From a virus: 64,000 bases of DNA. The number at the start of each line of letters is the position of its first letter. Position 1 is the first letter of the stretch. The notes under the pieces were generated by a model, which did no database searches, was not told where the DNA came from, and saw only the letters and a list, made by a program, of their open reading frames with translations. Shown here piece after piece: positions 5 to 45,469 of the stretch. The stretch covers positions 1 to 64,000 of the IMG/VR virus record IMGVR_UViG_3300043446_005775, one strand, 5' to 3'. A program made the translations under genes and the position numbers.

Positions 5-3000
5 TTGAAAAGACCCGGGGAAATTGCTGCCGCGCTTTGCGCCGAACCACCAAGGGAGGCGATCAGCCTTGCTGTCACGCCATTGCAAGTGTCAAAGTCA
101 ACACATGTTGCCACAAAAGTAGCCGACTTTTTCGCTCCTGGCGAAAGGGGTGATGTGCGTCCGGTTCGTTTGGACACAGACAGCGAAACTGGTGGCGTCG
201 GAATTCTGAACCCTGTTGCTGATCATTCTGTTCAGTATGAAGGAATTCCCTTGTCGCACGTACGGCGAGCGCATCTGTCTCGAAATCCCACTACTGGTGA
301 ATTGGAGTGGGTGAGAGGTGAGGCCAGGGGCCGTTTGCCAAAAGTCATTCATGGAACCCTCTTGCATCCTTTTGCTGCAGCAGATGCCATTGATGCCATT
401 CACGCAGGATCTTTTAAAGACGAAGACGGCAATTTGCACGAAAGTCATGTTGCAAGCGCATCCCCAACGGGAATAGTAAGCAGACCTGCCAGCAGCGACG
501 AGCGTTTTTCTGGGGCAGACATCAGCAGTGTTCGCACAAACGGCCTGCTTGAAATTCACGGATTGCCGTTGTTCCATGGGATTCTTGCGGGATCAAATGC
601 ACACGATACAACAGGAGTAGGCGCAGAAAATTCCTATTACGATGAATGGGTAAAACAAGTTCAGGCAACAAATCCCGGGCAATTGAGTGGCGAAGCATTG
701 CTTGGTCGTCATGGTCGCTCATTGTACGCCACTCCGCCTGTTGTGGCGTTTGAAAGACCTTTGAACAGGGAGATTTCCAGACTCAGGCAAAGGCTTGCGT
801 TTCTGCAATCAAAAACAACAAAACTGACCGCAGAAGGCAGAATGGAGATGCGAAGCCTGGAGGAGGAGTTGAGGAGCAAAGAGCAGCTCATGCAAAAAAT
901 ACGGATCCCTGATTCCGCATCTGCGATGGCTGACGACTCTGATCTTGGGCAAAGTTTTTTTGGAATAGCTCCGACTCTTCGTGGGGGAATGGCTCCCATG
1001 TATGGAAAGCCTTCAAATCCTCTTCGTATCGAAGACCTGACGAGAACCGTTTCCGCAACTGGTGGTGATCGTCCATATCTGACAAGAGGGATGGGATTGT
1101 TTGTCGATCCATCGAAACATGCAGGTCACTACGCGCAAGTGGTTCGCGCCATGACCGTCCCCACCGTCGGTGTTGGAGGAGGATTGAGATCGCCAAATAG
1201 GCCGTTCAGCGTAATTCCCACGCGAGTCAGGGTTCATACATCAGTAGAGCCAAACACCCGCATGATTCCCGGTCTTCCAAACATTCCCTTGCGAAATGTT
1301 GCCGCACTTTACCCGACAATACGAGGACTTGTTCAAGGACAGGTATTTTTTTCCGATGAGGACGGCGTTCCCACCTATGTGACGGCAGCGGACAATGGGC
1401 CTGTTCTTTATAATCCACGCGCGGAAACACGGGCAAGCCTTGTGGCTGATGGCCTTCCCATGTATGAGCATTGGGGATATGCATACACAAAATCCGGAAC
1501 TGGCCACACCTTGGAACTCACTCGGCTTCAAGACTTGAAAGCACGTAGCGAGATAGATCCCGCAGTCAAATTCACCGATAGTGATCGGCAAAAATTGGTG
1601 AAATTACAAGAAGAGGTTGATGTTCGCAGGAAAGCATCAGATCTGTTTGGATACAATTCTGACACGCGCCCGAAAATTCCGGGAGTCCCAAATCAGTATG
1701 GGCATCCAACCATTGGCGAAGGACCAATTGCAAGAAGGGCGATTCCTGGTCTTGATCCCAATGCGGAAGTTTCAAAGACTCGTGCAGTATTCGATCCGTT
1801 GCAGATAGGTACGGCTGACCGGCCTTCATATATTTCCTTGAGCATGATTCCGGCTCAATCCTTGGACAACATCAGCAATACACGCGAGTCTCCATACTTG
1901 AGGGTGCTGCATGATCACGACGGTGTTCCTGATGAGGTCGTGCGCATTCCTGATCGTGGAACAACCACCAAAAGATTGTCTCCTGATGAGTTGACATCAG
2001 AGGAACTCGCAAAAAAGTCATTTCGTGCCGTTGTTTCGTCCGTGGGGACAAGTCGTTATCGCGTGGCAATGCTCTTGCCGTCAACGGCAAAGCATCCTGT
2101 GATATCAACCTATAATGTGAGATATTCCCCGCAAACAATGTCTTATCGGGCACCAGCAGGAGCGCCAAATTTGCTTGGACAAATACTTGGTTCTGTTTCA
2201 GAGGAAAATAACAGGAGAATAAGCCAGAATGTTGATCAGGCAAGAATATTCGAAGAATTATTTGCGGCGCGAGATTCTGATACAGGAAGAATTTTCCAGC
2301 AAGTCATTGATTCTTCGAACAATCCTTTTGCAATGCATGCAAACTTGCCATTATTTGAACCTGTATGGGACGCTGAAGGAAACCCGATACCGGGAGCGTA
2401 CCGGCAAAGCTTGCAAGCTTCGTATGTGTCACGTCCTCTTCCCGGAATAAGCGCTGCTGAAGCAGCAAGGGCTGGCCTCCAGCCCATTTACCAGCCGCCT
2501 GAAGGAAATATTCCTCCGATTTTATTGGATGACCCATACTCGCCCATGAGTCCTGACGGAACAAGATCAGCAAGGGGGTTGGCAGTATATCGACTGAATT
2601 CTGACACCGAAAATGGAATGCAGCTTCTGTTTCCGCAAAATGCCAACGCATATTTTGGCGTATATGACGGCCAGCTTCGTCCGGAATCTCGGCGAGAAAC
2701 ATACACATATGTCAATGATACGATTCGGGCAGCTCCGGTTCGACAAAGCAAGGAAGGATCTGATTCGACCATAGACAAGCATGCAGCCATTGAACTAAGC
2801 AGGAGATTATATTACAGGCGAAGAAATTCTGCAGAATTGGCATCGGGACAATACAAGATAATTCCGGTGTTCGAGCATGATACACAGCCATCAAAAAAGT
2901 CAAATGCACTCATGATGCGTGGATGGCAAAGCGAATTGATGGATGGCGTTTCTTCTCATCTTGAAACGGTTGAGAATCCTTCAAAAGAATATGTCGAAAA

Positions 3001-6000
3001 TTACATTATCGATTCCTTTGCTGCTGATCCTTTTGCAAATTCAGAAGACAAAAGATCCAGCATAAGTGATGATCAGGCACGTGCCATGTTCAATGCGCTT
3101 GGCGTGTTCCAAATGTCTCAGCCGGAGCAATTTAGCTTGCAGGAGTTTAAAAACTGGATGCGGGAAGGGCTCAAAAAAGGCAAGACAGACAAGGAAATCA
3201 TAGAAAATCGCCCAGTGATTGGAGATGCCGTTTTTTGGCCACAAGATCCAGCTCCTCCACAAGTGACGACGCCACGGAAAAAAATCGTTGGCGCATATCG
3301 CTTGTTTTCTCAAAGCAGGCCATTGAGTCTTGGCGAATGCAGCATAAGCGAGGATGGCCGATTGATGATTCCATTCAAATCGCCAGATTTTGATCAAATT
3401 CGGGAAGGTCAATCGTTGCAATTGTACTCATACAACGATGGGACTAAAGATGTTCGGTACCAATATACTCCTGATCAGTTGACAAAAAGGCTGCTTGATC
3501 CTCTTCTTATCACCGAGGTGATGTATGACAAAAGAAGCAAGATGGCCTTCTGTCGCACTTCCCAGCCAATTGCATCATATTTTGGAACGGATCCTGATGC
3601 CATTAGAAAACTTGAATCAGATCTTACAAAAAGTTTTTCAATAACTCTTCATCGGCATGAACTTCATCCTGTTTTGCCGTCCGATTTTGTTCCATATGAC
3701 GGATATATTGAACAAACTGACGAACCAATTCCTCCTGACTTGTTCATGAAAATGCTCATGGGAAACGAGTTAAGGGATGCAGAAAAGGAAGTGGCCAAAA
3801 ATATCCTTCGGTATTTTCATGCCGCGGCAACAAAAAGGGAGTTGGGCAACGACAGCGAGGGACTGCTTCGAAAAATAGGCGTTCCTGTTGATGCCCAGGA
3901 TTCTCATTACATGTTTGCAAGCCTGAAGCCGGAACATTACACATGGGCAAGGTTTGCTGCGGACACCACTGTTGATTTGAATAGCCCACAATATTCCGAA
4001 GTCATGCAACTCATAAAAAGCATGGGCAAAGATACCGTTGATGAAATAAGTGATCCGCAGCAAAGAATAAAGATCTTTGAAGCCATAAAAGAAGTGGCTC
4101 AAAATCCCGAAAAGCAGGAGAAAGGAATTGCCGAATGGCTCAAGCAACCTCTTGGCCAAGCCATTCTGAACTTTCGCAACAATCGAAAGCCGGATGCCGA
4201 TCCCATGGTTCAAGTAAAAGGAGACGAAGGACAATTACTCAGCAGGACAATTGGATCATTGAGATGGGATCCACGCGACAAGCAAATACAGACGGGCGGC
4301 GAACCCATTACTGTGGCGCAACATATTTTCCGGATGCTCGGCGGCGGAGGACAATCAGCAGAGCAGAAAACTGTCCTGAATGGGGATCGATATTCTTACA
4401 CAACAGAACAGGGACAACAAAGACAATTGTCAATCAACGGGTTGGTCAATACAGGGAATTCTCTCCTTCTTCAGGAATACAAAGGATGCATAAATGATGA
4501 GTTCCTGAAAGTCATCGGATTTGGGGCGATGGCTGATTTTGCTGCCAATCTGGATGATTTTGACAAGAATCACTCATCACTTGAGTATTTGGATCCAACA
4601 AAAGAGGCAACCGGAAATCCGTTTGACGCAATACGGAAAAAACTTTCCCTTTTTGCTTTGTCTGATGACAATCAAGAAAAGATACGGTTGGCTGGACAAA
4701 TACAAAAAATATGCGATTCCTACCGGAATCAACAGTTGCGTTTGGTGCATGAAAGAATTGGTTATTATGAAGAATTAAGAGATCCCCAGAAAGCCATGTT
4801 TACAGCACTTGCAAATGAGGGGATCGTAGGAAATTTTGACAGATTGCAGGACGTGCTTTCTTTAATCCCTGGAATGAAACCTCAGGAATCAAAGATCATT
4901 GGCTTTCTTGGCGAAAGTGATGATTTTGGAAACAGGATGCCAGGAAATTCTGGTTTTTATCGATCTTCTTCAAACTCGAACGCCTATGAGTGTTCCGAAG
5001 CATACTTGAATCCATCAGCGTTTCAAATTGTCGCTGGAGCCGGGCAAAACCAAGATGATGAAGACCTTACTTTTGCAAAAGCGTTGGAATATCCAGTCAT
5101 CAGGAAGGAAGTTCAACAGGTAGCAAGAATAGGAATGGAATTGCTTTTTGATCCCGAAGGAGTAGGAGATGCTTGGGAAAAATTGGATGAACAAGACAAA
5201 TCATTGCTTTGGACGCATTTGGGTCTTGAAACTGATCCCTCCAATTTGTTGAAAGGTATTGCAAATTACCTGGGAATCGATGAAAATGACATTCGCGCAG
5301 GCATGATGGAGCAAATAAAATCAAGCGTTACCAATCTCATGTCAGCTGAAATTGCAAATTCGGCCTCACTAACAGCCTTGCACATACAAAGAGAGCAAGA
5401 GAAATTGCGTGATAGTGCATACGAGGCCGCGAAAACAAAAACTGCCCCCAGAATTGATCCGCCTGCGCCACTGGTCAGAAGATGGTCACCATTGACGAAT
5501 GTTGTGCCTCATTTCAGAGCCTATGCAGAATACGGAATGGAAAAAACGGACAGATTTGAGGGCAGACTCCCCGAAGTTGTTGCTGCAACCCTTCATCCTG
5601 ACAATTCTTTTGTCCCGCCGATGGCTCCTTATTCAGACGAGCACGAATTGATGGACATTCCGTATGGCGAGGGCGTATTGCGTGGTCAATCACCATTTCC
5701 CGCATGTTCGGATACCATGCTTCAAAACGTGATGAGATTGAAGCAGGATGCAAGAGCTGCATCGAGAATCATTTATTGGGACAACCCTGCAAAGTCCAAC
5801 GATATTGTCACCGTTGATCAATTTGATGGAGCCATGTTTGGAAACTCCTTCTCAAGCAGATGGGCTCCATTGAGAATGCTTGGTCAGGACAGCAGTGACG
5901 ATTCTGTATCTGACGGAGCGGTGGCTTCAATAACAAAGCAGTATTTTGGAATCGATCAGGAAGATGACGCACAAACAGTGGCACTGAAAATTCAAAATGC

Positions 6001-9000
6001 CATTTTGCAAGGAAATGCGCTCAATGGATTGCTGCTTGCCGCAGATGTGGCAGATCAAGTTGACGTTGAAGAAACAGTTGAATTGCCTGGGCACACACGA
6101 GAAAATCCAAAAACAAAGAACGAAAGAGGGACAGGAAGAGTCCACAGGATAGACGGAATAGCTGGCCAACTTGGTCGATCAAAAGCTCAAAATGGCATTT
6201 ACGCAGTAGTTGACAAGAGTCCGGATGCCCTGAAGTTTGAAAGAACAGGAAACTCGATTACCATACAGAAGGGCTTGTCTTTTTCATGGGTAAGCAAGGG
6301 GCAATCAAAAATACCAGGGCAGATATTTTCTGCGCAGAAAGTCATCACTGATGTTCCAATAACAATATCCTGGAGCGTTCAATCAAACAGAATAAATATA
6401 AACCTTTCTGACTTGAGAAAGAAAACCGAAATCGTGTCGAGAATCATTGATTCCGACCTCACGCCCACCGAGGAAAAAAACGCTCAAGCAAGCGCCCGGG
6501 AGCATGCAACACGCGAATCAAATGCCAGATTGTTTTCAGGCGCAATGCCGCAGGAAATTCCATCATTGTCTTCGCATGATCCCAGAGTCAAAAGCGCCTT
6601 CCAATCTCAATTTGATTCCTCATTGGTTGGCACTGGAAACGGATTTGAAAGCGTCCAGAATGCCAGGGAATTTGAACTGTCTACCGGATGGTCGCTGCTT
6701 CATGAAGACGCCATCAGGGACGCTTTCAAGGATCAGCGTTTTGAGGCATTGATAGCCCCACACGCCTCAGGACAGCAAGGGATTGTAGTTGCGACACTTC
6801 CGCAGCAGGAAGACGATGAAAAAGTCCATGCAATAGTTTTTATCCCCATGATTCCGGCAGGAGATACCTCAGCTCTTCACGATCACACTGATCACATTGA
6901 TCGGGAAGGCGCGTTGATAGAAGAAAGACTGTATCATCAAGCGCGGGAGAGTTCGTATGTTCTAGGTTTGCATAGCGGAAGCCTGGATGCCAGCTCTGGA
7001 AATCCCGGTCAAACTGCTGCAGAAAGAATGAGTCGAGCTCCTAATTTTGTCAACGGATCCCGAAGTCCTCTGCGCAATGGAAAACCGGATAATATTCGCG
7101 TTGGAAGACCGCTCGAAAACGAAACCGAGCGAATGGCGAGAACGAAGAGGGGCGGAGATGGAACACCGCGCTCGACTCCGTCAGTATACGGAAGATTTGT
7201 CGTTGTTTCGTTGGATACAAACGATTTCCAAAAAAGAGATCTTGCTGGATCCTATGTATCATTCGGAGATGTTGACAACAAAAAGGCGAAAAGTATTGAA
7301 GAATTAAAGATTAAATTGCAAGAAGCGCGAAAAAAGGCAAAAGAGGCAGGAATTGAAACTGTCAGCAATGTGAATAAAAGAGTGGAGCTCATGACTCCAA
7401 CAGAAAAACTGATGCATGCTATAAATATGCTGGAGAAAGAGATTAGAACGGCACAACTGGGACTTTCAGAAAAACAAAGGAAAATTAATGAATCCGCCGA
7501 AGATATTGTCGTTGTTCCCAGGGAATCCATAACATCATATTGGGATCCAACAATCATAATGAATCATAGTTCAGTGGCGAAAATGACGCCATATCTGGCG
7601 TATTGGTTATCGCAAAAATCAAAGAGGCTCGATTTTTCTGATTCCATGAAGGAAACATATGATCACATACAAGAACATCCGTTGATTGATGACAGCGCAA
7701 AGGCAGCTCTTCGCGATGGAATCTTCAGTTCAATCGAGGAGAGAGACAGAAACACCGACAGTGCAAGTGCAAACGACAAGCTATTGGCAAAAGATCATGT
7801 CCATTCCAGATTGATAACGATTCCTGATGGGGACTCGAAAATATCTTTCTTGGAAATACCGGATAGGGTGCTGAAGATTGATCCAACGCTAAGTGACAGG
7901 AAGATTCGCTTTAGCTCCCAACAAATAGCAACGTTCTTGGAAGAACTTCCAAGTCAGCTGAAGAAGATTGCCGCAGAAAACGGCTTGACTGTATGGGCAA
8001 TCAACGGGAAGGTTTCGGAGGCGTTCAACTATACGAATAGGGCCGGTCAACCACTCGATGCGTATGGGTACAGGAAAAAAAATGTCATCATAGCCAGCAC
8101 GATAGGCGTTGATCCGATGATGGAGTTCATTACGCATTTTGCGGATTTCATTGCGGAAAAAACGTGGCTTGTACAAGACGAAATGCAAATGGGCCAATTA
8201 AACTCTGTCAACAAGAATTACGGGGAGTGTTACACCAAGGCTCTGGATTGGGCAAAAACCAAGATTGATCAGGCAAAAAAGATACGTGACTCAGGATTCA
8301 GAGAAAACCCAGATGATCCAATGTCAGAAGAGTTGCCGAGGGAAAAAAGATGGATTTTCAATGAAATATTGGCAAACATTTCAGATCAGGATGAATTGCA
8401 AGACCAATTGAAAGTTGCAAAAAAATTATTTCAGATATACATTGCAACACTTTTGTTTTCAAGTGGATCGTTTGCGGAATCCAAGTCGGGAAAGACGCAC
8501 ACGTATGTGAACATGCCTCCTGTCGGATGGCTGAATGGAGCGATGCCTCCCCCGCATTTTGTGAGTTTTGATCCTGTCGAACAAGCTACTGCTCTTGTGC
8601 ACAAAAATGTGAGATGGGAACAGTTGCTCAATGATACAAACGACGAAAGCAAGGGGATAAAAGATGACGCCGCAGCATTGAGCACGGCTGTTTCAGACTA
8701 TGTGCTGTCATTGAGCAAAACAGTTGCTCCGGAAGAAAAACACATTAACATTGCAAAACTGAAAATTAATGCGAACACCGATGCCGAGCAGAAAGAGTCC
8801 ATAACGTATGGAATCCAGCCTGTCAACCCATCATGGGGAGCAGAATTGAGAACATTGGAGCAGCAGCTAAAACAGCAAACAGGCCTAACAGAACAAGAAA
8901 AGGAACAGGAACGGGCGAAGATAAGTAAATTGAAAAAAACCATTGCAGATGCAAAAAATACGGGAGCCTTGGCAATCATTGCTTCTGCCGGAACAGGAAA

Positions 9001-11899: not shown

Positions 11900-11930
11900 A
11901 TAGCGAACGGTGCGTCCTCTCAGACCATCA

Positions 11931-11957: not shown

Positions 11958-12242
11958 ATGGCAATCACAAAGAAAAACGACCAGTTTTACTATGATTATG
12001 AAGAAGACGACGACGAAGGCGACTCATCGCAAACATGGGTTCCCATCGAGAAACTCAGGGGCCGTCATCGCCGACAAGCACTTCAGGAATTGCATAGAGG
12101 TCGATTTGCCAATGTCAGGAATATCGATGCCGAGGAAGCGGAAAAAATGCTTACCTGGATGCGAAGGAAAAAGACGTTTTCCGACAAGGACATCAAGAGG
12201 GCCGAGCAAAAGCTTGCCGCAGAAAAGAAACTGTTTGGTTAA
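11958..12242 (+). CDS. Small hypothetical protein (94 aa), acidic N-terminus and basic C-terminus
   Basis: AAGGAG RBS; fills the gap between two giant genes. Confidence 0.75.
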   Translation: MAITKKNDQFYYDYEEDDDEGDSSQTWVPIEKLRGRHRRQALQELHRGRFANVRNIDAEEAEKMLTWMRRKKTFSDKDIKRAEQKLAAEKKLFG

Positions 12243-30323: not shown

Positions 30324-30978
30324 TAGGATGGAACGCTATGTCAATGATGACAAGTCCGCATTGATTGAGAAATACTCATCAATGATTCCCGTGAATATCA
30401 TGAACAGAAGCAAGGATTCATCCACCTACACCATCCTGTTGGGAATAGAGCGGCTTGATCTCCCTAAACTGACATCGGGCGATGCCGTTGTTTGGTGGTA
30501 TTGCATCCAGCTGAAGACGTGCAAGACGTGCGTCTTTCTTTCGGAAAAACAAAAGGAATTCCCGTATCAGATGTGCAACAATCCGAAGATATCCATTCGC
30601 CTGTTTGAAATCATTTCACGAAGCATGTCGACTTGTGATGAGTGGCATGCGGGGTTTTCTGAAGAGCGCATCGAAAGCGAACGATCAATGGGATATTCGG
30701 AGAACCTTTACGTTCTTGCGGCATTGATCAAGATGGGCCTCCGAGACATGCCGAAAAATATTCCCATACCTGCAATTGGAGCGGTAAAAATGTTACAGTT
30801 TTCCATAGAGCTTGCCGCTGCCGCGGACATCCATAACGCCATTGTTCATGAATACGTACAATTGTGTGTCTTGAAGCGATCTGGACATGATATTGACGAT
30901 GAATATTTTTCCGTTGTTTCACAAAGGGAATTGCCCTTGATACAAGGGAATAAATTCAATACCAATCTGCTACTATGA
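30316..30978 (+). CDS. Hypothetical protein with four-Cys cluster (possible Zn/Fe-S site)
   Basis: CKTC..MCNNP..TCDEW; the ATG at 30316 follows AGGTG and overlaps the upstream gene end. Confidence 0.75.
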   Translation: MNDRMERYVNDDKSALIEKYSSMIPVNIMNRSKDSSTYTILLGIERLDLPKLTSGDAVVWWYCIQLKTCKTCVFLSEKQKEFPYQMCNNPKISIRLFEIISRSMSTCDEWHAGFSEERIESERSMGYSENLYVLAALIKMGLRDMPKNIPIPAIGAVKMLQFSIELAAAADIHNAIVHEYVQLCVLKRSGHDIDDEYFSVVSQRELPLIQGNKFNTNLLL

Positions 30979-36544: not shown

Positions 36545-36562
36545 TTGTGCAAGGAGAAAGCA

Positions 36563-37213
36563 ATGGCATCGCTAGAACACAACATGTCGAAGTTGAAGGT
36601 CAAGGAAAAGGCAGAGAAGCTGGGCGTTGACCGGGCTGTGGCGTCCCATAGCGGCGGCCGTCGTTCTTCCAGGAAATCCTTTCAGGCAGTGCTGTATCCA
36701 AAAACTGCATCAAGGAACACGACCATTGAGCAGCGGGTGCGAAGCCTGCAGAAATCCGTGCAGAATACGGCCGGAATAGGGCGCATCATGGAGAACATCG
36801 CCGACATCGTCGGTTCTTCGTTCAACTCTCCGATGCCGATGCCCATGACAAGTGATGGGTCTCCTGATTGGGACGGCCCGAATGAGAACAGTTTTGTCAT
36901 GATGCCAATCAACAACAAGAAGTCGAGCTTGCATGGAAGATTCGTGATTCTTCAGAAGCTGCCAAATGGAATGTACAAGATTGCTGAAAAGCCCTCTGGC
37001 AAGAAGAAGAAGGCCAAGGATGACGATGACGATGATGATCGTGACAATCGTGACAATGATGAGGGAAAAGTCAGCAAGGGGATCATCACGGGTTCCCGGC
37101 AACAACGACGTGACAAGGGTGCCACACATCACTGGGCGCCGAGGGGTGTTTCCTCCCGCAGCCCAAGAACGGCAGGAAGGGGCCCCAAGGGGTCGAAGAG
37201 TGGGGCGCTCTGA
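36563..37213 (+). CDS. Basic, disordered hypothetical protein (candidate internal head protein)
   Basis: AAGGAG RBS before ATG 36563; SRKSF, LQKSV, KKSSL and VSKG motifs, plus poly-D and basic tracts. Confidence 0.75.
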   Translation: MASLEHNMSKLKVKEKAEKLGVDRAVASHSGGRRSSRKSFQAVLYPKTASRNTTIEQRVRSLQKSVQNTAGIGRIMENIADIVGSSFNSPMPMPMTSDGSPDWDGPNENSFVMMPINNKKSSLHGRFVILQKLPNGMYKIAEKPSGKKKKAKDDDDDDDRDNRDNDEGKVSKGIITGSRQQRRDKGATHHWAPRGVSSRSPRTAGRGPKGSKSGAL

Positions 37214-37812
37214 TGCGCACCAGCAGGAAAGTCGGAGCGAGGAATGCCCCCGCCCTGACGCCGACTGGCTTGCGCAAATCATCTTCGGGAAATGGCGGCC
37301 CCAATGCCGAGAAAAGTCACGGCATCCCAACTGCGCTCCGCAGGGAAAAGTCTGGCCCAGCAGCGCAAAAGGCGACCAATATCGAAAACCAATTTCGATA
37401 TGCGCTGCTTAGGAAAGGATTGGACTTCATCGAGCAAGCGAACATTGGCCCGTGGTCCTGCGATTTTCTCCTGCCCGATCACAAGATTGTCATCGAAGCT
37501 GATGGTGAATACTGGCATTCGATTCCGAAAACCATCATGAAGGACAGGAGGAAAGATCTCTGGTTACGATCAAAAGGCTATTCGGTCTTGCACTTTGAAG
37601 GAAAACGCATATCTGCAGATCCGGATGGCTGCATAAGCAAAGTGATACAATTGATAGAAAAGAATAAACTTTCCCTTGTGATTGAAGAAGAAGAAGAAGA
37701 AGAATTCATGGAAAAGCCGGAAATAGCCATAGCAAAGGAAACCGACGACGATGCAGAATACGAAGCTTGGCTCTCTTCCGGATCTGTCGGATCACGAGGA
37801 AGCCTTGGTTAA
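37213..37812 (+). CDS. DUF559 / Vsr-like PD-(D/E)xK endonuclease
   Basis: TNIE..EQANIGPWSCDF..IVIEADGEYWH..KDRRKDLWLRSKGYSVLHF; TGATG coupling to the upstream gene. Confidence 0.9.
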   Translation: MRTSRKVGARNAPALTPTGLRKSSSGNGGPNAEKSHGIPTALRREKSGPAAQKATNIENQFRYALLRKGLDFIEQANIGPWSCDFLLPDHKIVIEADGEYWHSIPKTIMKDRRKDLWLRSKGYSVLHFEGKRISADPDGCISKVIQLIEKNKLSLVIEEEEEEEFMEKPEIAIAKETDDDAEYEAWLSSGSVGSRGSLG

Positions 37813-38053
37813 GAAACTGAAGAAAAGTCTGCGTATTCCTCATATCTCCCACTCGGGAAATGCCGTGTGCACCAACCCATCCTGCAGGGCAAGAATGATC
37901 AAGTCCAATGCAAATCTTGAGGTAAATTCAATCTCACATCGCGCAGTCATGATTACAGGAAAAACAAAAATCTTTCTGATCGGCAAATCAATCATTGCCG
38001 AATGTGTATGCGGAACAAGATACGACCTTGATGGCGCACTGAGTGAGGAATGA
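37805..38053 (+). CDS. Small zinc-ribbon protein
   Basis: CTNPSC ... CVCG; likely TTG start at 37805 after GAGGA; LKKS, MIKS and IGKS motifs. Confidence 0.7.
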   Translation: MVKKLKKSLRIPHISHSGNAVCTNPSCRARMIKSNANLEVNSISHRAVMITGKTKIFLIGKSIIAECVCGTRYDLDGALSEE

Positions 38054-38054
38054 C

Positions 38055-39515
38055 ATGCCAGTATTGCAAATGCTAGTAGCAACAGACAAGACAGAATATT
38101 CAAGATACAATTTCTCGACCCGGGTCATCACGGTTACTGCAACCGCGGCACTGGGAACAATAGAGCTTGAAGATTCCTTTGTCTTTTCCATACGAAGGGT
38201 GCTTACGGAAAACTGGCCGGAAGAACACTCTGCGCTCATGACCAAGACAATTACGGCAACAAGCCAGGATGTGGCCACGCAATCGGTGACTTGTCAATTC
38301 ACCATCGGATCCGATGATCTTGATCAGGATTTCATCAGCCGATCCCTGCATGCACAGTACCGGGTGCGAGTTGCCGCAGGATCATCCTACTGGGAGTGTC
38401 CGTCGCTGATTTCCATTGCGATCATCACGACACGCGAGATGCGAGAGGAGTGGTGCTATGGTGCTCCGCTCAAGGCAATGGAAGTGCTTGGAGTCAAGTT
38501 CCAGCCACGAAACATCACCGGGTTCTCAATTGATGAGGTGTCCAACGGCGTAGTCCCTGGAGTGAAGACGTTTGCATTGAAATACATTGCGCCGATTGCG
38601 CCAGCAACCGCCCATCAGTGGACGCTGCAATGGGACAGCGGGACACCCATATCGATCACGTCCCCGGCCAGGCAGCAGTACCTTCTTCTTGACGAGACCA
38701 ACATCAACTACATGCTTGTTGATATCAACCCTGCCTTTCTGCCGCGCGTCAGCATGACGGAATCCCTTCTCGTGTCCGAACTGGCAATGACTGACGAGAT
38801 GATCCAGCGAAGAATTGCCTTTGCCATTGGCTCTGCGGAATCATTGCTTGGATTTCCGATGGAGCCGAACCTGATAACGACATTGCCCCGTCACCCCGGA
38901 CAGACACAGGAGTTGCAGCACCAGGCGGATCATTGGGACCGGATCGGCAGACCGGCAGACTTCATCGCTCCGGTTGACCTCATGATGTGGCCGACATTCA
39001 GGCTTCCCCAGCAATGGTGCCTCAAGCTGCATGAAATCTATGGATACCATTCCACCAACAAGATCGTGAAGGTGACGGAAGACTGGTTTGCCACCACGGT
39101 TGACCGGATGAGCGGACTGGTCTCCCTTGTTCCTTCATTGGGGAGCTTTGCGCAGTGGCAGGTTTACACGTATCCGCTGATCTCTCCCTTTTACATGCGT
39201 CATAATATTCCTTCGTTCTGGCAGTACACGGGCATCTTCGGATTGCCTGACCTCACCAATGATGGACGCGCCCCTGTGCGCGAACTGATCGGAAGGATTG
39301 GCGCAACCTCCATCCTCACTGAGGCCGGAAGAGGCTATCAAGGGGGATTATCTGGGGAATCAACATCCCGGGACGGAATTTCCAGCAGCCGATCATTCAA
39401 TCCCGGCGGCCCATACGCCAACACGATCCAGGCTCATCAGCAATGGATACAGGCAGAAGCCCCGCGATTGAAGAGCAAGCTCGGAGGCGTCCTGATCCAA
39501 ATGATTGGAGCATAG
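38055..39515 (+). CDS. Neck / head-tail adaptor protein (SPO1/Twort-like) with N-terminal extension
   Basis: C-terminal GLSGESTSRDGISSSRSF...LKSKLGGVLIQMIG resembles the G...S.S.DGIS.S end of Herelleviridae-type neck proteins; followed by the Cys-rich partner gene. Confidence 0.65.
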   Translation: MPVLQMLVATDKTEYSRYNFSTRVITVTATAALGTIELEDSFVFSIRRVLTENWPEEHSALMTKTITATSQDVATQSVTCQFTIGSDDLDQDFISRSLHAQYRVRVAAGSSYWECPSLISIAIITTREMREEWCYGAPLKAMEVLGVKFQPRNITGFSIDEVSNGVVPGVKTFALKYIAPIAPATAHQWTLQWDSGTPISITSPARQQYLLLDETNINYMLVDINPAFLPRVSMTESLLVSELAMTDEMIQRRIAFAIGSAESLLGFPMEPNLITTLPRHPGQTQELQHQADHWDRIGRPADFIAPVDLMMWPTFRLPQQWCLKLHEIYGYHSTNKIVKVTEDWFATTVDRMSGLVSLVPSLGSFAQWQVYTYPLISPFYMRHNIPSFWQYTGIFGLPDLTNDGRAPVRELIGRIGATSILTEAGRGYQGGLSGESTSRDGISSSRSFNPGGPYANTIQAHQQWIQAEAPRLKSKLGGVLIQMIGA

Positions 39516-39517
39516 TC

Positions 39518-40195
39518 ATGCCTATCGATATCCAGCAGCATGTTCGATTCATTCTCCGGCATGGGGAGCGGGTTGTCCATTACCGTGGCATCCTGTGTTC
39601 CTGCTCCCCAACAGCAAGGCCGGAAGAGGCAGACCTAGGGTGCCAGAAATGCAACGGACTTGGAATATTCTGGGTTGACCCCGTGACGGTCATCGCGCTT
39701 GTGCATGGACTGGATTCCGACCGTTCCGGAAGGCTTTGGCTGCAGACCGGAATTGCGCTTCCCGAGGACATGACCTGCTCTCCATTGCCCAATGCTGCAC
39801 GAAGGTTCAAGGATTACGACAAGGTCATTCCCACATGGCCGCGAGGATTTCCATACCCTGGGGAACTGCTTATCCGCGGCCAAAAGGAGGTGCTGATCTA
39901 CCGGCCAGTCGGGAAGATCATGCGTGTCTCGCAAGTCCACGCAACCAATGGAAAGGAAACAACGTGGACACAAGGTGAGGATTTTGAGATGGCCGGGGAA
40001 GACCAGAAAAGACTCGAATGGTTTCCCAACAAGGGGCCGACTGCCAATTCCACGTACTCGGTGCTGTATGAGCCAAGGTTCGAGTTCGTCTCATGGACCC
40101 CGCCAGCTCCGCGATGGGAACGTGGCCGCGACCTTGGAGTGCGGGTGCTGCTCCGCAAGATCCACTTGCCGTGGCCGGTGACGAACTGGGGCTAG
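39518..40195 (+). CDS. Head-closure/neck protein with zinc finger
   Basis: LCSC...CQKCNGLG near the N-terminus, as in the CPC..C..C.G.G neck protein of SPO1/Twort-like phages. Confidence 0.65.
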   Translation: MPIDIQQHVRFILRHGERVVHYRGILCSCSPTARPEEADLGCQKCNGLGIFWVDPVTVIALVHGLDSDRSGRLWLQTGIALPEDMTCSPLPNAARRFKDYDKVIPTWPRGFPYPGELLIRGQKEVLIYRPVGKIMRVSQVHATNGKETTWTQGEDFEMAGEDQKRLEWFPNKGPTANSTYSVLYEPRFEFVSWTPPAPRWERGRDLGVRVLLRKIHLPWPVTNWG

Positions 40196-40210
40196 CCTGC
40201 CGTGCGACGG

Positions 40211-40221
40211 TGTGGTATAGT
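40211..40221 (+). promoter_or_regulatory. Candidate extended -10 promoter TGTGGTATAGT
   Basis: Lies just upstream of AGGAGG and ATG 40237; near-identical to TGTGGTATACT at 52341. Confidence 0.45.
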
Positions 40222-40236
40222 CGCATCAGGAGGAAC

Positions 40237-40818
40237 ATGTCGCAGGGCTACAGACCCCAATCGGGAGGACGGGATTCCGGACCTTCCTATGATCAGATCC
40301 TGCAAGAAGTCCGCAATGCAGGGATGATCTCCACTACGACCTCCGTGGATGTTGCACCAACTGCCGGAAACGAGTACCTGTGCATTGTCCGCGCGGAGTG
40401 CACCATGCCGCCGCTGCGTGAAGGCGATCAGCCGCGCCTGTACTCGGGGCTTGGCGCAGCATATCCGCGCAAGAACGGACAGAATGTTGTCCACGGCGTC
40501 AGTAATCCTGCGTTTTACATGCACATTGCCGAGAGTCGCGCAAAGAAACGCGCGTGGATGGATGCCATTGGGCGTGGCGACGGACTTGAGGAGAACATCC
40601 GTGAGGATGTCATGATGGATCGCGCCCACACTTCAGCAGCACGTGATGCGGCTGCCCTTCCTCCTCCGCGTTGGCAGATGTCCGATGAAGCAGCTCATCG
40701 GCTTGTCTCCCTTAGCACCTATACCTTTGAAGAGGCCAAAGCCATGACAAAGGAAGAAGCCAAGAGCGCAGTCCAAGCGATCAATGCAAAATTGGCTTCC
40801 ACGGAAGGCGAAAATTGA
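40237..40818 (+). CDS. Putative Rad52/Sak-like single-strand annealing-fold protein
   Basis: AGGAGG RBS; CIVRAEC..YSGLGAA..MHIAESRAKKRAWMDAIG resembles the 'G.G...AE(T/S).A.KRA....G' Rad52-fold signature. Confidence 0.55.
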   Translation: MSQGYRPQSGGRDSGPSYDQILQEVRNAGMISTTTSVDVAPTAGNEYLCIVRAECTMPPLREGDQPRLYSGLGAAYPRKNGQNVVHGVSNPAFYMHIAESRAKKRAWMDAIGRGDGLEENIREDVMMDRAHTSAARDAAALPPPRWQMSDEAAHRLVSLSTYTFEEAKAMTKEEAKSAVQAINAKLASTEGEN

Positions 40819-40889
40819 CAAGCCCCATGAATAATGCCCAGTAGGTATTATATATAGGACAAAAGAGTAGGGCCAGCGCAGACATGCGA

Positions 40890-40962
40890 AGGGGCCGTCA
40901 TTACCCGGATTGGCCTTGCGGATGCAAGGATTTTTGGGGTAATGACGGCCCCTATTAATTTT
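40890..40962 (+). terminator. Long hairpin: 17-bp perfect inverted repeat with nested 6-bp stem
   Basis: AGGGGCCGTCATTACCC (40890-40906) pairs with GGGTAATGACGGCCCCT (40937-40953); inner CCTTGC-GGAT-GCAAGG; followed by ATTAATTTT. Confidence 0.7.
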
Positions 40963-40978
40963 GGGATAGAATTGACAC

Positions 40979-41959
40979 ATGAATCAAGCAGATACCATAA
41001 GACAACATAGAAAAAGCCTTGCAGAAATGGATGGCGTAAGCGCAACCTTCGAGGTTCCGCTTACGTACATCAAGTCCTTTGTTGGGAACTACACCACATC
41101 AATGGGCGAGGTCAAGAAGGGTCGCATCATTGAAGGCATCGCTTCCACTGAGGACAAGGACCAGCAGGGAGAGATCGTGGTTCAGGACAAGATGGATTGT
41201 TCCTACTTGCTTGAAAAGGGGTTTTTGAATTGGAATCATTCGCATGCACCGGAAGACCAGATCGGAAAGCCCTTGGAGGTCATCAAGCTGGCTGGCGGCC
41301 CATCGACCCCGAATGGGTTGCCGTGCACGTTCTTCCGGGCGTTGCTCTTCGAGAGCATGCCACGAGCTGAAGCGGTGTGGACATTGAGCAAGGCTCTGGA
41401 GGATTCAGCCGGGGTTGGCCAGGACAGGTATCTTGGGTTCTCCGTGGAAGGCGGTGTCCGGGTACGCCACAACAATATCCTGATGGAGACCATGGTCAGG
41501 CACATGGCCGCCACGCATGAGCCGGTGAATGCCCAGGCAGTTGCCCGTTGTGTCCTGGCGAAAAGCCAAGGTTTCAAGGTCGAGGAGAATGTGCTGATTG
41601 ACACGCTTGATGATAATGTCCCGCATTTCATCTTCAAGAGTTTTTCGCAACTCTCGAAATCCCTTCTGCTTGCCAAGAATGTTTCCGCGGAAGTTTCTTC
41701 CCATGCGACACTTGCGGAGATGTCTCCTCTTCGGCGCGAATTTCTGAGCCGCAAGGGGAGCAAGCATCGGAAGTCTTTTGCGGACGTTCTCTATGGGGAT
41801 TGTGCTCACGGAAACAGATGCAAGTCTGGAGACACATTCAAGAAAGGCTATCAGGGTGCACTGGATCATCTGGTGTACTGTGGAGGCATGCAACCTGCAG
41901 AAGCGGCAAAATCACTCTTGTCGCATATACGTATGTTAAAATCAAATCAGAATCTTTAA
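40979..41959 (+). CDS. Prohead (maturation) protease, SPO1/Twort-like
   Basis: IEGIAST..DQQGE..GFLNWNH (His)..IGKP..LGFSVEG (Ser)..ATHEPVN; lies upstream of scaffold and capsid genes. Confidence 0.92.
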   Translation: MNQADTIRQHRKSLAEMDGVSATFEVPLTYIKSFVGNYTTSMGEVKKGRIIEGIASTEDKDQQGEIVVQDKMDCSYLLEKGFLNWNHSHAPEDQIGKPLEVIKLAGGPSTPNGLPCTFFRALLFESMPRAEAVWTLSKALEDSAGVGQDRYLGFSVEGGVRVRHNNILMETMVRHMAATHEPVNAQAVARCVLAKSQGFKVEENVLIDTLDDNVPHFIFKSFSQLSKSLLLAKNVSAEVSSHATLAEMSPLRREFLSRKGSKHRKSFADVLYGDCAHGNRCKSGDTFKKGYQGALDHLVYCGGMQPAEAAKSLLSHIRMLKSNQNL

Positions 41960-41969
41960 GGAGGAAATA

Positions 41970-43517
41970 ATGGTTAGTGAAATGCAGTTAGCCAGAAGAC
42001 AGCTCGACAAGGAGCTTAATCGGCACAACATCCCTGATGCACTGCAAGTCCTCGACCGTGCTGTTGGCGGGTTGATTGACCTTGCCAAGAGCCGTGTCGG
42101 CGATGGCGTGACAAATGCCAAGGAAGTCAAGAACCCATTTGGCGATCCACCCGGAATTCCGGGAGCGGGGAAAGCTGATGGGAACTACCGCTTGCCGAAG
42201 TTCGCTGGCGTCTACACCAATACCCAAAGTGTGCCCAAGAAGAAGGTGAAGACCAAGTCGGAGTCCTCGACAGCGCTTCCCACCGCTGCCGGGAGCATGC
42301 GTCTCGGCAAGGCTGCCGACGGGATGTACGAAGACGAGGAGAAGGCCTGGGACGAAGACGAGGAGAAAGGCTGGGGTAACGACAACGACAACGACGCTGA
42401 TGACAGCGAGGGCATGACCTACAAGGGTCCCCGAGGCATGGGTCCGGGCATGAGCGCCGGTGGCGGCGAAGATGACGATGAGGAGTACGATCCCGACGCT
42501 GACGACGACGAAGAAGGCGAAGACGACGGGGACTATGATGATTCGGATAACGAAGAGCGTTATGACGAAGAGGGAAATCCCGATCCGAATGGCGAGTACG
42601 ACAAGGATGGCAATAAGATCGGACCTTCGGACGACGACGAGGAAGAGGAAGAGGAAGAGGACGAAGAGCAAGAAGGTGGTGGGGATGCCTCTCGCCAGCA
42701 GGCCTTGGAAGAATTGCTTTCCCGAGACAACAAGTACGACAAGGGACCGGGCATGCGGCCGCGCAAGCCAGTAATGCCACCGGCCCCACCCCCGGCTCCG
42801 GCTGGCCCTCCGGGCATGCCTCCGGGAGCAGGACCAATGGCAGGAGGAGGTGCGCCTATGGCACAGAGTTTCCAGCGGAGCCGCAAGGCCAGGCTCGGCG
42901 ATATTCACAAGGCTCTGGTTTCTGGCCCTGATGGGGCACAGGTCGCAGAGGTTGTGGAAGCCAGCAAGGAACTTGCACAGATGGTGAATGTTTTCGGACG
43001 ATTCCTCGCGGACATCTCGACACAGGTCGAGTCGGTTCGTCAGGAGCAGTACGAGAGCACCGCCATGCTGGCCAATGCGGTCAGCACAGTCGTGAAGAGT
43101 CAGGCTGCCATGGCTCTTGGCCTTGAGCGGATTGCCAAGTCCGCGACAGCACTGGCGCAGAACAACGCCCCGATGCAGAAGTCGCTCCGTCAGGAACCTG
43201 CTTCTCGCCCGAATCCCGGAGTGCTCATGAATGGAAAGGTCATGTCCGAAGGAGCCCAGCTCCGTCGCTCGAACGCGACCGTTCTTGATGATTCGGGATA
43301 CGCGATGGTGTCCGGTTCCCAGATCGAAGGGCGCTTGACAAAGTCCCTGGTTGGAACGGTTATCCAGCAGTCGGTACTGGACGGGGAATATTCCCCCAAG
43401 GAAGCGCTTCGTTGGTTGACTGAAACCGATAGTCCGACAACGGGCCCTATTGGAGTGTTCCAGCAGCTTCCTCCGAAGCTGCGTGATCGCATCATCGCGA
43501 AGACACAAGAAGTCTAA
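41970..43517 (+). CDS. Acidic scaffold-like head assembly protein
   Basis: Between protease and MCP; AAGGAGG RBS; D/E tract, Pro-rich linker, coiled coil, repeated LAKS/LGKA/IHKA/VVKS/IAKS/MQKS/LTKS. Confidence 0.75.
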   Translation: MVSEMQLARRQLDKELNRHNIPDALQVLDRAVGGLIDLAKSRVGDGVTNAKEVKNPFGDPPGIPGAGKADGNYRLPKFAGVYTNTQSVPKKKVKTKSESSTALPTAAGSMRLGKAADGMYEDEEKAWDEDEEKGWGNDNDNDADDSEGMTYKGPRGMGPGMSAGGGEDDDEEYDPDADDDEEGEDDGDYDDSDNEERYDEEGNPDPNGEYDKDGNKIGPSDDDEEEEEEEDEEQEGGGDASRQQALEELLSRDNKYDKGPGMRPRKPVMPPAPPPAPAGPPGMPPGAGPMAGGGAPMAQSFQRSRKARLGDIHKALVSGPDGAQVAEVVEASKELAQMVNVFGRFLADISTQVESVRQEQYESTAMLANAVSTVVKSQAAMALGLERIAKSATALAQNNAPMQKSLRQEPASRPNPGVLMNGKVMSEGAQLRRSNATVLDDSGYAMVSGSQIEGRLTKSLVGTVIQQSVLDGEYSPKEALRWLTETDSPTTGPIGVFQQLPPKLRDRIIAKTQEV

Positions 43518-43540
43518 GAAAGAAAGAAGGAGGATCGAAA

Positions 43541-45469
43541 ATGGCACTTTTGACAGAGTTCCCTTCGGGGTACAAAAAGCCGGAGCCGCTTAACAAGTCG
43601 TTTGACATGATTGTTCGCGACTGGAGTCGGCAGCAGTTCGGAGGCGACGACATCGTCGACGAGATTCGCAAGGCGCTCAGCACAGGCGTTGCTTCCCAGA
43701 TCACCGCTGGCGGCGCGGTTACCGCTGGCAACAACAATCCGGGCGAGACCACTGCGTTGCGTCTTGAGAACCTCGACAATACCATGACGAGCGTCTTGGC
43801 GACCGCGGAGCATCTCAAGATTTTCCGCTGGCTTCACAAGGAGCCCAGCAAGCAGCCGTTCTATCAGTGGAACCGTCGCGAGTCGTATGGCTCGACAAGA
43901 GGGTTCTTCGGATTTCAGGAAGGCGGGTTACCCAACGGCGGCAAGGGTCAGTGGTCAAGAAATGGTGCGTACGTCAAGTTCCTTGGTACCAAGGGCGGGG
44001 TAACCCATCCTGCGGTGCTGACGAACATCCTCGGTGGCATGTCGGTTGACCCGGTTGCCGAAGATCAGCTTGGCCGTACCATGGACTTCATGCAGCGCAT
44101 CGAAAGAGCCGTCATGTATGGCGACGAGGATATCTACGATGTTTCGGGCTCTGATGCGAACTACGACGGAATCCTGAAGCAGCTTACGCAGAAGCGCTCG
44201 AAGAACATCATCGACCTTGAAGGCAAGCCGCTCACGCTCGACGTGATCGCGAATGTCGCGTCGCGACTGGTCAGCGAAGGCAAGCTTCTTTCCTTCAACG
44301 ACATCTCGCTCTTCATGAGCCCCCAGAACATCGAGGACTTCGGCAAGCTGCGGTACTCGACCATTCTTGGCACCAACAATGAGCCCGGAGGCCCTGGTAC
44401 GCGCGTGGACCGTGCTGACCTGACCACCTCGGCTCGCAACAACCTCATCGCCGGTCTGTCCATCGTTGGACAGGCGACATCGTTCGGCGTGATTCCGTTC
44501 GAGTGGTCGATTTTCACCGAACCGGTCGAAGGCAGCGATCCGCTGGTAACCGGAGATCCTTCCGCTCCCGCTGCGCCGCTCAACAATTCGCCGCTGTATG
44601 CGAATCGTCTATCCACGCAGATCACAAGCGCCAGTAATGTCGCCTCTGACCTGGATTCTGCCGTTGCAGTCGTTTCGAAGAGAGTGAGCGGAACGGTTAC
44701 CACGTCGCTGAGCGCCACGTATTACAGACGCGACCAGGCTCCCGGGAGTGCCATGATCAACGGGACTCGTGACGGCACAGGATACAGCAGCGCCACCTCC
44801 TTGAGCACTCCTTCTGAAACCACCACGGTAACGAGCTATTCCGATAGCGGCGGAACACCGTACATCAACGAAGGAAGAATCTGCCACAATATCACCGTCG
44901 CTGCTGCATCAAGCAAGCATGATGCGTCTGATACCACATTCTACTGGTACCGTGCATCGTCGGTCAACGACAATGGCGAGTCCGCTGCCTCGTATGTCTC
45001 TTCTGGAGCGGTAAGCCCATCGAAGGATTATGTCGTGAAGTTCCTCATCCCACGTGTTCAGGGAACCGGTCTCGCCGCTGCCCGTGCGTACCGGATCTAC
45101 CGCTTGGCATCCACCGTCGAGAATCCAACTTACCAGCCTTCGCTTTCTTCGACCACCGTTGGAGTTGGAACAGCTGGATGGCAGTTTGTCGGATATGTCG
45201 CAGATCCCGGCGTTGGTGACTGGGTCGAGTTCACGGACTCGAACGGAGCCTCTTCGGACTACACCAACTTCCGGCCGGGCACCAACATCGCCCCGTTGCT
45301 TTGCCGTAACAGTGCTGACCTGTGCGTCGCGCAGATGTCGCCGCTGCTCAAGATGCCGCTTGCCCCGACAAGCACAACCTTTGAGTATCTGCTGCTTCTG
45401 TACCATACGCTGGTCCTCAAGGCACCGGAGCGTCAGTTCATCTTCAAGAATGTCGGCAAGCTGAACTAA
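43541..45469 (+). CDS. Major capsid protein (SPO1/Twort-like HK97 fold) with enlarged beta-sandwich insertion
   Basis: EIRKALSTG..TALRLENLD..FQEGG..IERAVMYGD..YDGIL..IIDLEG..QMSPLLKMPLA..LLYHTLVLKAPER..IFKNVG; strong RBS. Confidence 0.92.
   Translation: MALLTEFPSGYKKPEPLNKSFDMIVRDWSRQQFGGDDIVDEIRKALSTGVASQITAGGAVTAGNNNPGETTALRLENLDNTMTSVLATAEHLKIFRWLHKEPSKQPFYQWNRRESYGSTRGFFGFQEGGLPNGGKGQWSRNGAYVKFLGTKGGVTHPAVLTNILGGMSVDPVAEDQLGRTMDFMQRIERAVMYGDEDIYDVSGSDANYDGILKQLTQKRSKNIIDLEGKPLTLDVIANVASRLVSEGKLLSFNDISLFMSPQNIEDFGKLRYSTILGTNNEPGGPGTRVDRADLTTSARNNLIAGLSIVGQATSFGVIPFEWSIFTEPVEGSDPLVTGDPSAPAAPLNNSPLYANRLSTQITSASNVASDLDSAVAVVSKRVSGTVTTSLSATYYRRDQAPGSAMINGTRDGTGYSSATSLSTPSETTTVTSYSDSGGTPYINEGRICHNITVAAASSKHDASDTTFYWYRASSVNDNGESAASYVSSGAVSPSKDYVVKFLIPRVQGTGLAAARAYRIYRLASTVENPTYQPSLSSTTVGVGTAGWQFVGYVADPGVGDWVEFTDSNGASSDYTNFRPGTNIAPLLCRNSADLCVAQMSPLLKMPLAPTSTTFEYLLLLYHTLVLKAPERQFIFKNVGKLN

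Follow-up and report, generated by a model that had tools for sequence, protein, structure and literature searches.

The internal proteins of bacteriophage T4 are diverse anti-restriction proteins whose only common part is a capsid targeting sequence (CTS) that the prohead protease cuts off (PMC3012670). In phage P1, the 250-kDa protein DarB, encoded beside the portal and protease genes, is packed by means of its first 30 residues and requires small helpers (PMC9024508), while the E proteins of the phiKZ-like phage SPN3US carry propeptides of 20-254 amino acids (aa) with several copies of the motif cut by the protease gp245, which itself loses a C-terminal propeptide (PMC10052503). A broader class, the polyvalent proteins defined by Iyer, Burroughs, Anand, de Souza and Aravind in 2017, consists of very large proteins in which unrelated conflict-type domains are joined; their genes lie among those of the virion, and packaging and injection are predicted for them (PMC5512222). 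Here we describe a 64-kb window of viral DNA (positions 1 to 64,000 of the IMG/VR record IMGVR_UViG_3300043446_005775) in which the genes of four giant proteins, named giants 1 to 4, lie upstream of the head genes. The ends of most of these giants carry the motif probably recognised by the prohead protease of the same phage, which suggests that the giants may be capsid-loaded polyvalent proteins trimmed at terminal propeptides, a reading to which we give roughly even chances.

An earlier, sequence-only reading had pointed to large co-oriented open reading frames (ORFs) with recurrent K-S and K-A motifs just upstream of the head genes. All of these ORFs are present and every motif string that it quoted was found. 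The genes of direct concern, located like all others of the window on the + strand, are the following:

5..11899, + strand: giant 1, 3964 aa seen (~441 kDa), 5'-truncated at the contig end, with a UvrD/PcrA-type superfamily 1 (SF1) helicase
12263..25723, + strand: giant 2, 4486 aa, 493 kDa, with a SLOG-NADAR-SLOG arrangement
26385..30323, + strand: giant 3, 1312 aa, with an HD phosphohydrolase domain at aa 880-966
30998..36544, + strand: giant 4, 1848 aa, with a conserved N-terminal module, a variable putative cargo and a conserved tail
40979..41959, + strand: prohead protease of Herelleviridae type (PHROG 1028, E 1.3e-29)
41970..43517, + strand: scaffold, 515 aa, isoelectric point (pI) 4.5; its core is poly-Asp/Glu, and 6 of the 7 motif sites as well as the C-terminal domain are conserved
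43541..45469, + strand: major capsid protein (MCP), SPO1/A511-like (PHROG 752)

The gene at 40979 had already been taken for a head protease, an assignment that the PHROG match corroborates. A tblastn search with the protease matched 740 phage records, and the best matches listed were 26-32% identical and annotated as prohead or head maturation proteases; together with the MCP, it is 25-32% identical to its counterparts in SPO1-, A511- and K-like Herelleviridae. Sequence and profile searches for a solved structure of the protease gave no useful PDB match. Its residues H87, H89 and S155 (in GFSVEGG) are invariant in 9 relatives, and the protease of Listeria phage A511 has EH and GFSIEG at the equivalent places; H87, H89 and S155 are thus candidate catalytic residues. 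The Lys-Ser cut that the sequence-only reading had named for the A511 capsid protein Cps is indeed annotated in the GenBank record, where the mature peptide begins after EDALK↓SFTTG (Lys23; the arrow marks the cut). This site aligns with LNK↓SF of the MCP studied here (...EDALK↓SFTTG...GALRREFL in A511 vs ...EPLNK↓SFDM...TALRLENL), and FMK↓SWTTG of the A511 protease stands where our protease has IFK↓SF. A K↓S specificity is thus a well-founded prediction from homology, and the enzyme most likely cuts after Lys in the motif Phi-x-K↓S/A, where Phi is a hydrophobic residue.

We searched this motif as [LIVMF]xK[SA] and compared whole-protein counts with those in composition-preserving shuffles. 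It was enriched in the scaffold (7 vs 1.0 expected, z 6.4), the protease (5 vs 1.1, z 4.0) and a neighbouring Cys-rich protein of 100 aa (z 3.8), and weakly so in the MCP (z 1.85), whose two sites are both N-terminal. The sheath, tape-measure-like and other tail proteins showed no enrichment over shuffles. In three relatives the scaffold, protease, 100-aa protein and MCP again headed the proteome-wide motif ranking, with z values across the four genomes of 6.4-10.9, 3.8-6.1, 3.8-5.4 and 1.8-4.4, respectively. An unbiased dipeptide count on protease plus scaffold ranked K-S first outside low-complexity tracts (36 vs 11.2, z 8.4). In alignments of 12 relatives, the motif sites of scaffold, protease and MCP are kept even where their flanks change: the candidate MCP maturation cuts LNK↓SF (between aa 19 and 20) and IRK↓AL (between aa 45 and 46) in all relatives, LAK↓SQGF and IFK↓SF of the protease in all nine aligned relatives, and its LSK↓S and C-terminal MLK↓S in most of them. 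The high motif density noted earlier in the protease, the scaffold and the MCP N-terminus is thus borne out by both counts and conservation.

The same motif recurs at the ends of the giants, in these elements:

11762..11896, + strand: basic C-terminal tail of giant 1 (last 45 aa, pI 11.5) with SLERS, FFKA and LKKS; within-tail shuffle P = 0.019
25571..25720, + strand: basic C-terminal tail of giant 2 (pI 10.8) with IAKS and FAKS; the tail of the homologue in the related genome G001 has three motifs
31256..31279, + strand: double motif MDKAIRKS of giant 4 (aa 87-94), at the end of a conserved N-terminal module (~aa 1-110)
36456..36541, + strand: tail at the giant-4 C-terminus (SLSRKMPRKFSKSSLSNDPKRLIMSIYNSL), with its frame kept in four variants (window, P0001, P0003 and L031)

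Giants 1, 2 and 4 have two motifs each inside their last 28-42 residues (positions 3937 and 3943 of 3964 aa, 4445 and 4458 of 4486, and 1815 and 1828 of 1848), whereas giant 3 has a motif at residues 4-7 (MNRIVK↓S) and none at its C-terminus. Across four genomes, at least two motifs in the last 50 aa were found in 6/24 proteins of the giant block vs 0/95 others (Fisher 4e-5), and a motif in the first 12 aa in 7/25 block proteins vs 4/140 others (P = 2e-4). Shuffling within the tails, which controls for their basic, Ser-rich composition, left the excess in place: 14 tail motifs vs 2.9 ± 1.6 expected for 15 giants and, for the 11 giants of the other genomes only, 8 vs 1.8 (P = 5e-4). The clustering at the ends of the giants claimed in the sequence-only reading therefore holds relative to other proteins and is replicated in relatives. 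Whole giants have a pI of 5.7-6.5, the last 45 aa of giants 1, 2 and 4 one of 10.8-11.5, and the scaffold one of 4.5.

The N-terminal instances comprise MVVVFRKS, MMQQALMKS, MLIFKKS, MLFFKKS, MKKLKKS, MTMRKS and MNRIVKS, the first of them being the N-terminus of the G001 homologue of giant 1. Further lineages show MKKSF on proteins of 433-437 aa (L035/L038), MTMKNLKKS, leaders plus tail pairs (L027/L042), MSTRTRVSKS together with a tail pair, and tail pairs on proteins of 434 and 349 aa; a 1702-aa giant of the relative G002 has LRKS and then LKKA in its tail. In a statistical sense, though not for every giant, these proteins thus appear to carry a terminal propeptide or targeting element ending in the motif of their own prohead protease.

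Giant 4 offers the clearest view of how such ends relate to the rest of the protein. In the family found at its position, whose members range from 377 to 1848 aa, only the N-terminal ~110 aa are conserved; they mostly begin with M..KKS and end in a conserved Phi-x-K-A-Phi-x-[KR]-[SA] double motif. Because this double motif is kept in members of such different lengths, aa 87-94 of giant 4 represent a candidate propeptide boundary. The opposite end stays in frame, since the homology (87% at the DNA level) with L031, a metagenome contig with unrelated sequence upstream, starts at 36456, precisely 30 codons before the giant-4 stop. Likewise, the variant P0001 is 98% identical over aa 1-1306 and 41% over the next region, and its last 30 residues are identical. 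Between the ends, the pentapeptide-repeat domain (Qnr/MfpA DNA-mimic type; aa 1343-1560, nucleotides 35024-35677) is missing or replaced in two close relatives, P0001 and P0003, one relative lacking it entirely, so that this module seems to behave as an exchangeable cassette. The cargo portion is variable as well, because the C-terminal 399 aa have no match in five related records. An AlphaFold2 (AF2) model of aa 1-300 was unusable (predicted local distance difference test, pLDDT, 47), and an atlas search with the same residues returned no match.

Few functions could be recognised in the giants, which have no recognised domain over 70-90% of their lengths. The sole recognised domain of giant 1 is an intact UvrD/PcrA-type SF1 helicase at aa 2980-3770 (nucleotides ~8942-11314); its G001 homologue (4202 aa) is 25-32% identical. 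Giant 2 has a DprA-like SLOG domain (aa 1721-1928), a NADAR domain (aa 2191-2331) and a SLOG domain of YspA/LDcluster4 type (aa 2469-2562), with a 26% identical homologue of 4272 aa in G001. Disparate domains within one polypeptide were recognised in giant 2, while giants 1, 3 and 4 have one recognised domain each. Giant 3 alone is conserved across the clade, with 46% identity to its counterpart in G001 and 28% to that in G003, and it has no match among cultured phages; sequence searches with giants 2 and 3 gave no useful PDB match. A segment of giant 2 (aa 75-106, 12485-12580, GSEQIGGSAETDALVRKSPIGRAIQRAIADG) resembles a conserved scaffold segment that follows LTK↓S (GYAMVSGSQIEGRLTKSLVGTVIQQSVLDG), with a local score of 45 vs 29.9 ± 4.8 in shuffles; the pair was singled out post hoc from 3889 pairs, giving P about 0.01, and a scaffold-mimicking loading element in giant 2 is at present a weak lead.

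These features suggest the following scenario. The prohead protease would cut after Lys in Phi-x-K↓S/A and in this way mature the MCP, break up the poly-acidic scaffold and trim itself. The giants, apparently fast-evolving multi-enzyme proteins (UvrD helicase; SLOG-NADAR-SLOG; HD; pentapeptide DNA mimic) co-produced with the head proteins, would enter the prohead via short terminal elements with one to three copies of the protease motif each: a strongly basic stretch of 30-50 aa at the C-terminus (giants 1, 2 and 4), an M-Phi-Phi-Phi-K-K↓S leader, or the ~100-aa propeptide of the giant-4 family. The basic tails might dock on the acidic scaffold core or on the inner capsid surface, and an electrostatic docking on the scaffold core is plausible. 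The protease would then clip off the terminal elements and free the cargo in the head; on ejection together with the DNA, the cargo would counter host defences. A more specific version, which we put forward tentatively and with less confidence than capsid loading as such, is a two-ended plug-in loading code: a leader or ~100-aa propeptide at one end, or a basic tail with tandem sites at the other, would dock on the scaffold and be clipped, so that the tails would serve as fixed adaptors while anti-defence cargo of up to half a megadalton was freely exchanged.

Comparison with the systems introduced above shows both likeness and difference. As in the T4 internal proteins I-III (IPI-III) and Alt, fast-evolving, diverse cargo would be combined with a short terminal signal that ends in the motif of the phage's own head protease and loaded on the scaffold core (PMC3012670). 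However, the motif of the T4 protease gp21 is (L/I)-x-E↓ and the T4 signals are N-terminal leaders, whereas the motif here is Phi-x-K↓S/A and many of the signals are basic C-terminal tails; moreover, T4 cargo measures about 10-76 kDa, in contrast with the 150-490 kDa predicted for the multi-domain giants. The P1 Dar system (DarB, Ulx, DdrA/B, DarA, Hdf) similarly includes a giant helicase-bearing protein encoded beside head-morphogenesis genes and small accessory proteins (PMC9024508), and DarB is packed through a short terminal signal, as is predicted for our giants. Unlike in P1, the terminal signals here carry protease motifs and are often C-terminal, the portal homologue of the relatives lies elsewhere, and we found no sequence relation to DarB. 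In SPN3US, the layout of propeptide, cut sites and variable cargo (PMC10052503) is that of the giant-4 family, and parallels exist there for both the ~95-aa candidate propeptide of giant 4 and the MLK↓S at the protease C-terminus; yet protease family and motif differ, and the SPN3US substrates other than the protease all have N-terminal propeptides.

The genomic setting recalls that of the polyvalent proteins: the genes of the giants form one co-oriented run with those of protease, scaffold, MCP and sheath, a context kept in all four relatives (G001, G002, G003 and G004), where a giant block likewise lies upstream of the head genes. The embedded zincin-like peptidases and the MuF, portal or DNA-binding anchors proposed for that class (PMC5512222) were undetected here, and the ends of the giants instead bear the motif of the prohead protease; that work mentions neither NADAR nor pentapeptide domains (PMC5512222). 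Listeria phage A511 (Herelleviridae) has a homologous protease and MCP, with the K↓SF site (Cps Lys23) at the equivalent position, but the identity is only 25-32%, the portal gene lies elsewhere in the relatives of this phage, and the A511 portal-protease-capsid genes are preceded by genes for terminase, endolysin and small virion proteins rather than by giant ORFs. Judged from these comparisons, what sets this case apart from T4, P1, SPN3US and the polyvalent class is the K↓S/A motif, the frequent C-terminal placement of the signal, a putative cargo of up to 493 kDa and the lack of detected peptidase, MuF or portal domains. Gene position and domain content fit the polyvalent class, and the giants carry the motif preferentially at their extreme ends; to this extent the capsid-cargo interpretation of the sequence-only reading is partly supported. 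Its two further elements, cutting of the giants as polyproteins and a single signal common to all of them, are not supported.

In the polyprotein model, many cuts by the prohead protease at K↓S/A sites inside the giants would release separate effector enzymes. Giants 1-4 do contain 12, 13, 7 and 8 motif sites, and in giant 4 the internal double motifs at aa 87-94 and 582-589 are conserved. However, these counts match the shuffle expectations (9.8, 11.6, 3.9 and 3.9; z 0.66, 0.45, 1.73 and 2.06), so that the whole-protein enrichment anticipated for the giants is absent, and no repeated tag was found around the sites. Among the 32 sites of giants 1-3, the strict motif is kept in G001 at only 2, the giant-3 N-terminus and LLKA (aa 1083), if the giant-2 tail, whose alignment is loose, is set aside. 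The internal sites of giants 1-3, including the FMKS and LLKS quoted earlier, look like chance occurrences because they are not conserved in homologues of 25-46% identity, with giant 4 as the exception. We therefore reject polyprotein processing as the main explanation and consider it very improbable. The same chance density and lack of internal conservation would also be expected if the giants were ordinary intracellular enzymes (for repair, recombination or anti-defence) that stay outside the virion and whose terminal K-S and K-A simply reflect basic, Ser-rich or Lys-rich ends. In line with this view, the bare K-S dipeptide reaches a z of only 1.7-2.4 in the tails, some giants have no terminal motif, and no virion-associated domain was found in them with Pfam or PHROGs. 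Nevertheless, tail shuffles that keep the composition still yield 14 vs 2.9 motifs overall and 8 vs 1.8 in the other genomes, proteins outside the block show the N-terminal motif in 4/140 cases and the tail pairs in 0/95, the giant-4 tail is kept in frame through cargo swaps, and a translationally coupled place in a string of late structural genes would be odd for early-acting functions. We thus regard intracellular enzymes as unlikely, albeit the strongest of the competing explanations. Less probable again is that the giants are packaged and their terminal elements are uncut anchors to DNA, scaffold or capsid, the likeness to the protease motif being secondary. The strongly basic tails (pI about 11) would suit such anchors; DNA-binding anchors that 'piggyback' on DNA have been proposed for polyvalent proteins, the N4 virion RNA polymerase is packaged unprocessed (PMC5512222), and cleavage of the DarB targeting signal of P1 is not reported in PMC9024508. 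Against this, the residue order Phi-x-K-[S/A] is commoner in the tails than in shuffles of the same residues and is precisely the feature conserved at the sites of scaffold, protease and MCP, and the double and triple motif copies recall the multiple cuts in SPN3US propeptides (PMC10052503).

Other observations weigh against capsid loading with terminal trimming, the reading that we favour, in addition to the chance whole-protein density and the modest dipeptide scores already given. A strict motif at the C-terminus or extreme N-terminus is missing from the 2222- and 1363-aa giants of G003 and from the 1986-aa giant of G004 (which has only VKAF), and it is absent from the C-terminus of G001 giant 1 and the N-terminus of G001 giant 4. 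The single common signal expected in the sequence-only reading fails most clearly for giant 3, whose only terminal instance occupies its seven N-terminal residues and disappears in more distant relatives. Apart from the four-residue motif and a basic composition, the tails have no tag in common, as judged from BLAST and ungapped window comparison, and the giants as a whole showed neither paralogy nor a shared tag when compared by all-against-all BLAST and by ungapped 32-aa windows around all sites. Zincin-like peptidase, MuF, portal-fusion and methylase-helicase dyad domains were all missing from the giants in Pfam (E up to 5) and PHROG searches, which leave room for remote homologues. The protease specificity is drawn from a single annotated cut in a family member of 26-32% identity. 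Both the motif and the size of the tail window were picked on this window, so that only the tests on relatives are independent. Finally, the lake metatranscriptome contigs that map to 26-46 kb match only conserved head genes of 90-95% identical relatives and are uninformative for the giants.

Head-protease-trimmed internal proteins and packaged polyvalent proteins are already established, and what this locus adds to them is incremental and depends on experiment. If capsid loading with terminal trimming is correct, a terminal copy of the phage's own protease site on a basic tail or short leader would provide a simple sequence rule for injected capsid-borne proteins in a large group of uncultured SPO1-like phages, and capsid targeting would widen from the N-terminal leaders of T4 and P1 to C-terminal tails. 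Proteins of 4000-4500 aa would become possible ejected cargo and, under the loading-code version, a cargo of half a megadalton would to our knowledge exceed any shown so far to pass through a phage tail. The tails would also be candidates for adaptors that bring foreign proteins into capsids, while the giants, with 70-90% of their length devoid of assignment, would be a reservoir of unassigned anti-defence domains.

The giants are accompanied by smaller genes that extend up to the protease:

11958..12242, + strand: small ORF of 94 aa after giant 1, 58% identity in G001
25727..26392, + strand: small partner ORF of 221 aa, always 5' of the giant-3 family, conserved in all lineages seen
30307..30978, + strand: small partner ORF of 223 aa, 3' of giant 3, 57% and 39% identity in relatives
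36545..37213, + strand: small basic protein of 222 aa (pI 10.2); in G004 a homologue is found as an N-terminal fusion to the 765-aa tail-bearing protein
37213..37812, + strand: Vsr/DUF559-type (PD-(D/E)xK) endonuclease, in all relatives, 82% identical in G001
37751..38053, + strand: Cys-rich protein of 100 aa, 94% identical in G001, with 3-4 conserved motif sites (z 3.8-5.4)
38043..39515, + strand: 490-aa protein with tandem Ig-like beta-sandwich domains at aa 1-270 (AF2 model)
39443..40818, + strand: two conserved proteins of the head module, one of 250 aa (PHROG 1004, virion structural protein) and one of 241 aa, both devoid of the motif

Every giant is followed by a small ORF (94, 221, 223 and 222 aa), and the trio formed by giant 3 with the 221- and 223-aa ORFs is kept in every lineage seen, while giants 1, 2 and 4 are variable. 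No family match was found for these four small proteins, and several of the motifs quoted from small ORFs in the sequence-only reading are at chance level. They could be chaperones, inhibitors or, in the manner of Ulx and DdrB with P1 DarB, loading helpers. HNH endonucleases are found adjoining terminase and portal genes, and the Vsr/DUF559 endonuclease within this head-gene string may similarly be a packaging-associated nuclease. The 100-aa protein, for which no family match was obtained either, is the most conserved protein compared between the window and G001; its pattern C-x4-C ... C-x-C is possibly a zinc ribbon, and the protein is a probable protease substrate or head-assembly factor.

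By size and position the 490-aa protein would fit a portal. We rejected this candidate: hhalign against the A511 portal gave a probability of 0.3, its atlas neighbours belong to tail or other virion-type clusters, and the AF2 model (pLDDT 62 overall, good over aa 1-270, C-terminal half unmodelled) shows tandem Ig-like domains. A homologue of the A511 portal was found elsewhere in relatives (G003:C1:16615-17436 and G004:C1:18754-19764), in the case of G003 at a distance of some 65 kb from the head module; the 77,255-bp contig of the window lacks it. No terminase was found in four records with A511 TerL and PF03237 as queries. In scaffold homologues (L002-L012) the poly-Asp/Glu core is very variable in length and sometimes accompanied by Gly/Pro-rich repeats (GGPPMGG-type), whereas 45 aa at the N-terminus and 210 aa at the C-terminus are conserved.

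The window is the first part of a single viral contig of 77,255 bp that has no terminal repeat and an estimated completeness of 47%. It belongs to an uncultured freshwater myovirus with head genes distantly related to those of the SPO1/A511 (Herelleviridae) type; several studies of freshwater and lake metagenomes contain near-identical DNA, and one giant-4 relative is filed in a Planctomycetia metagenome-assembled genome. The gene order is giant 1, 94-aa ORF, giant 2, 221-aa ORF, giant 3, 223-aa ORF, giant 4, 222-aa basic protein, Vsr/DUF559 endonuclease, 100-aa Cys-rich protein, the 490-, 250- and 241-aa proteins, protease, scaffold, MCP, sheath (47769-50900) and tail genes. Between giant 2 and the 250-aa head protein, adjacent genes overlap at start and stop or sit 0-20 nucleotides (nt) apart. 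G+C content rises from 43-47% in giant 1 to 47-52% in giants 2-4 and 54-58% in the head genes, and protein identity to G001 is 25% for giants 1 and 2, 46% for giant 3 and 75-94% for the head genes. The giants of the relatives measure 4202, 4272, 1316 and 1314 aa in G001, 2566, 2222, 1363 and 524 aa in G003 (184 kb, 97% complete) and 784, 765 and 1986 aa in G004.

The only sizeable intergenic gap of the head region (40819-40978, 160 nt) lies 5' of the protease gene and contains two terminator-like hairpins on the + strand (40914-40929 and 40936-40952); it may be a transcript boundary or a regulatory element. A promoter and terminator scan of 25.5-45.5 kb did not clearly exceed shuffles (22 promoter-like elements vs 14.4 ± 4.1, and 19 terminator-like ones vs 19.5). 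One lake metatranscriptome contig reaches across the 3' end of giant 4 into the following gene (36524-36576), and its loose end encodes a giant-4 tail of the G001 type (DESHYGSLLK), which hints that this junction is present in the RNA library of a relative, with DNA carry-over as another possible source.

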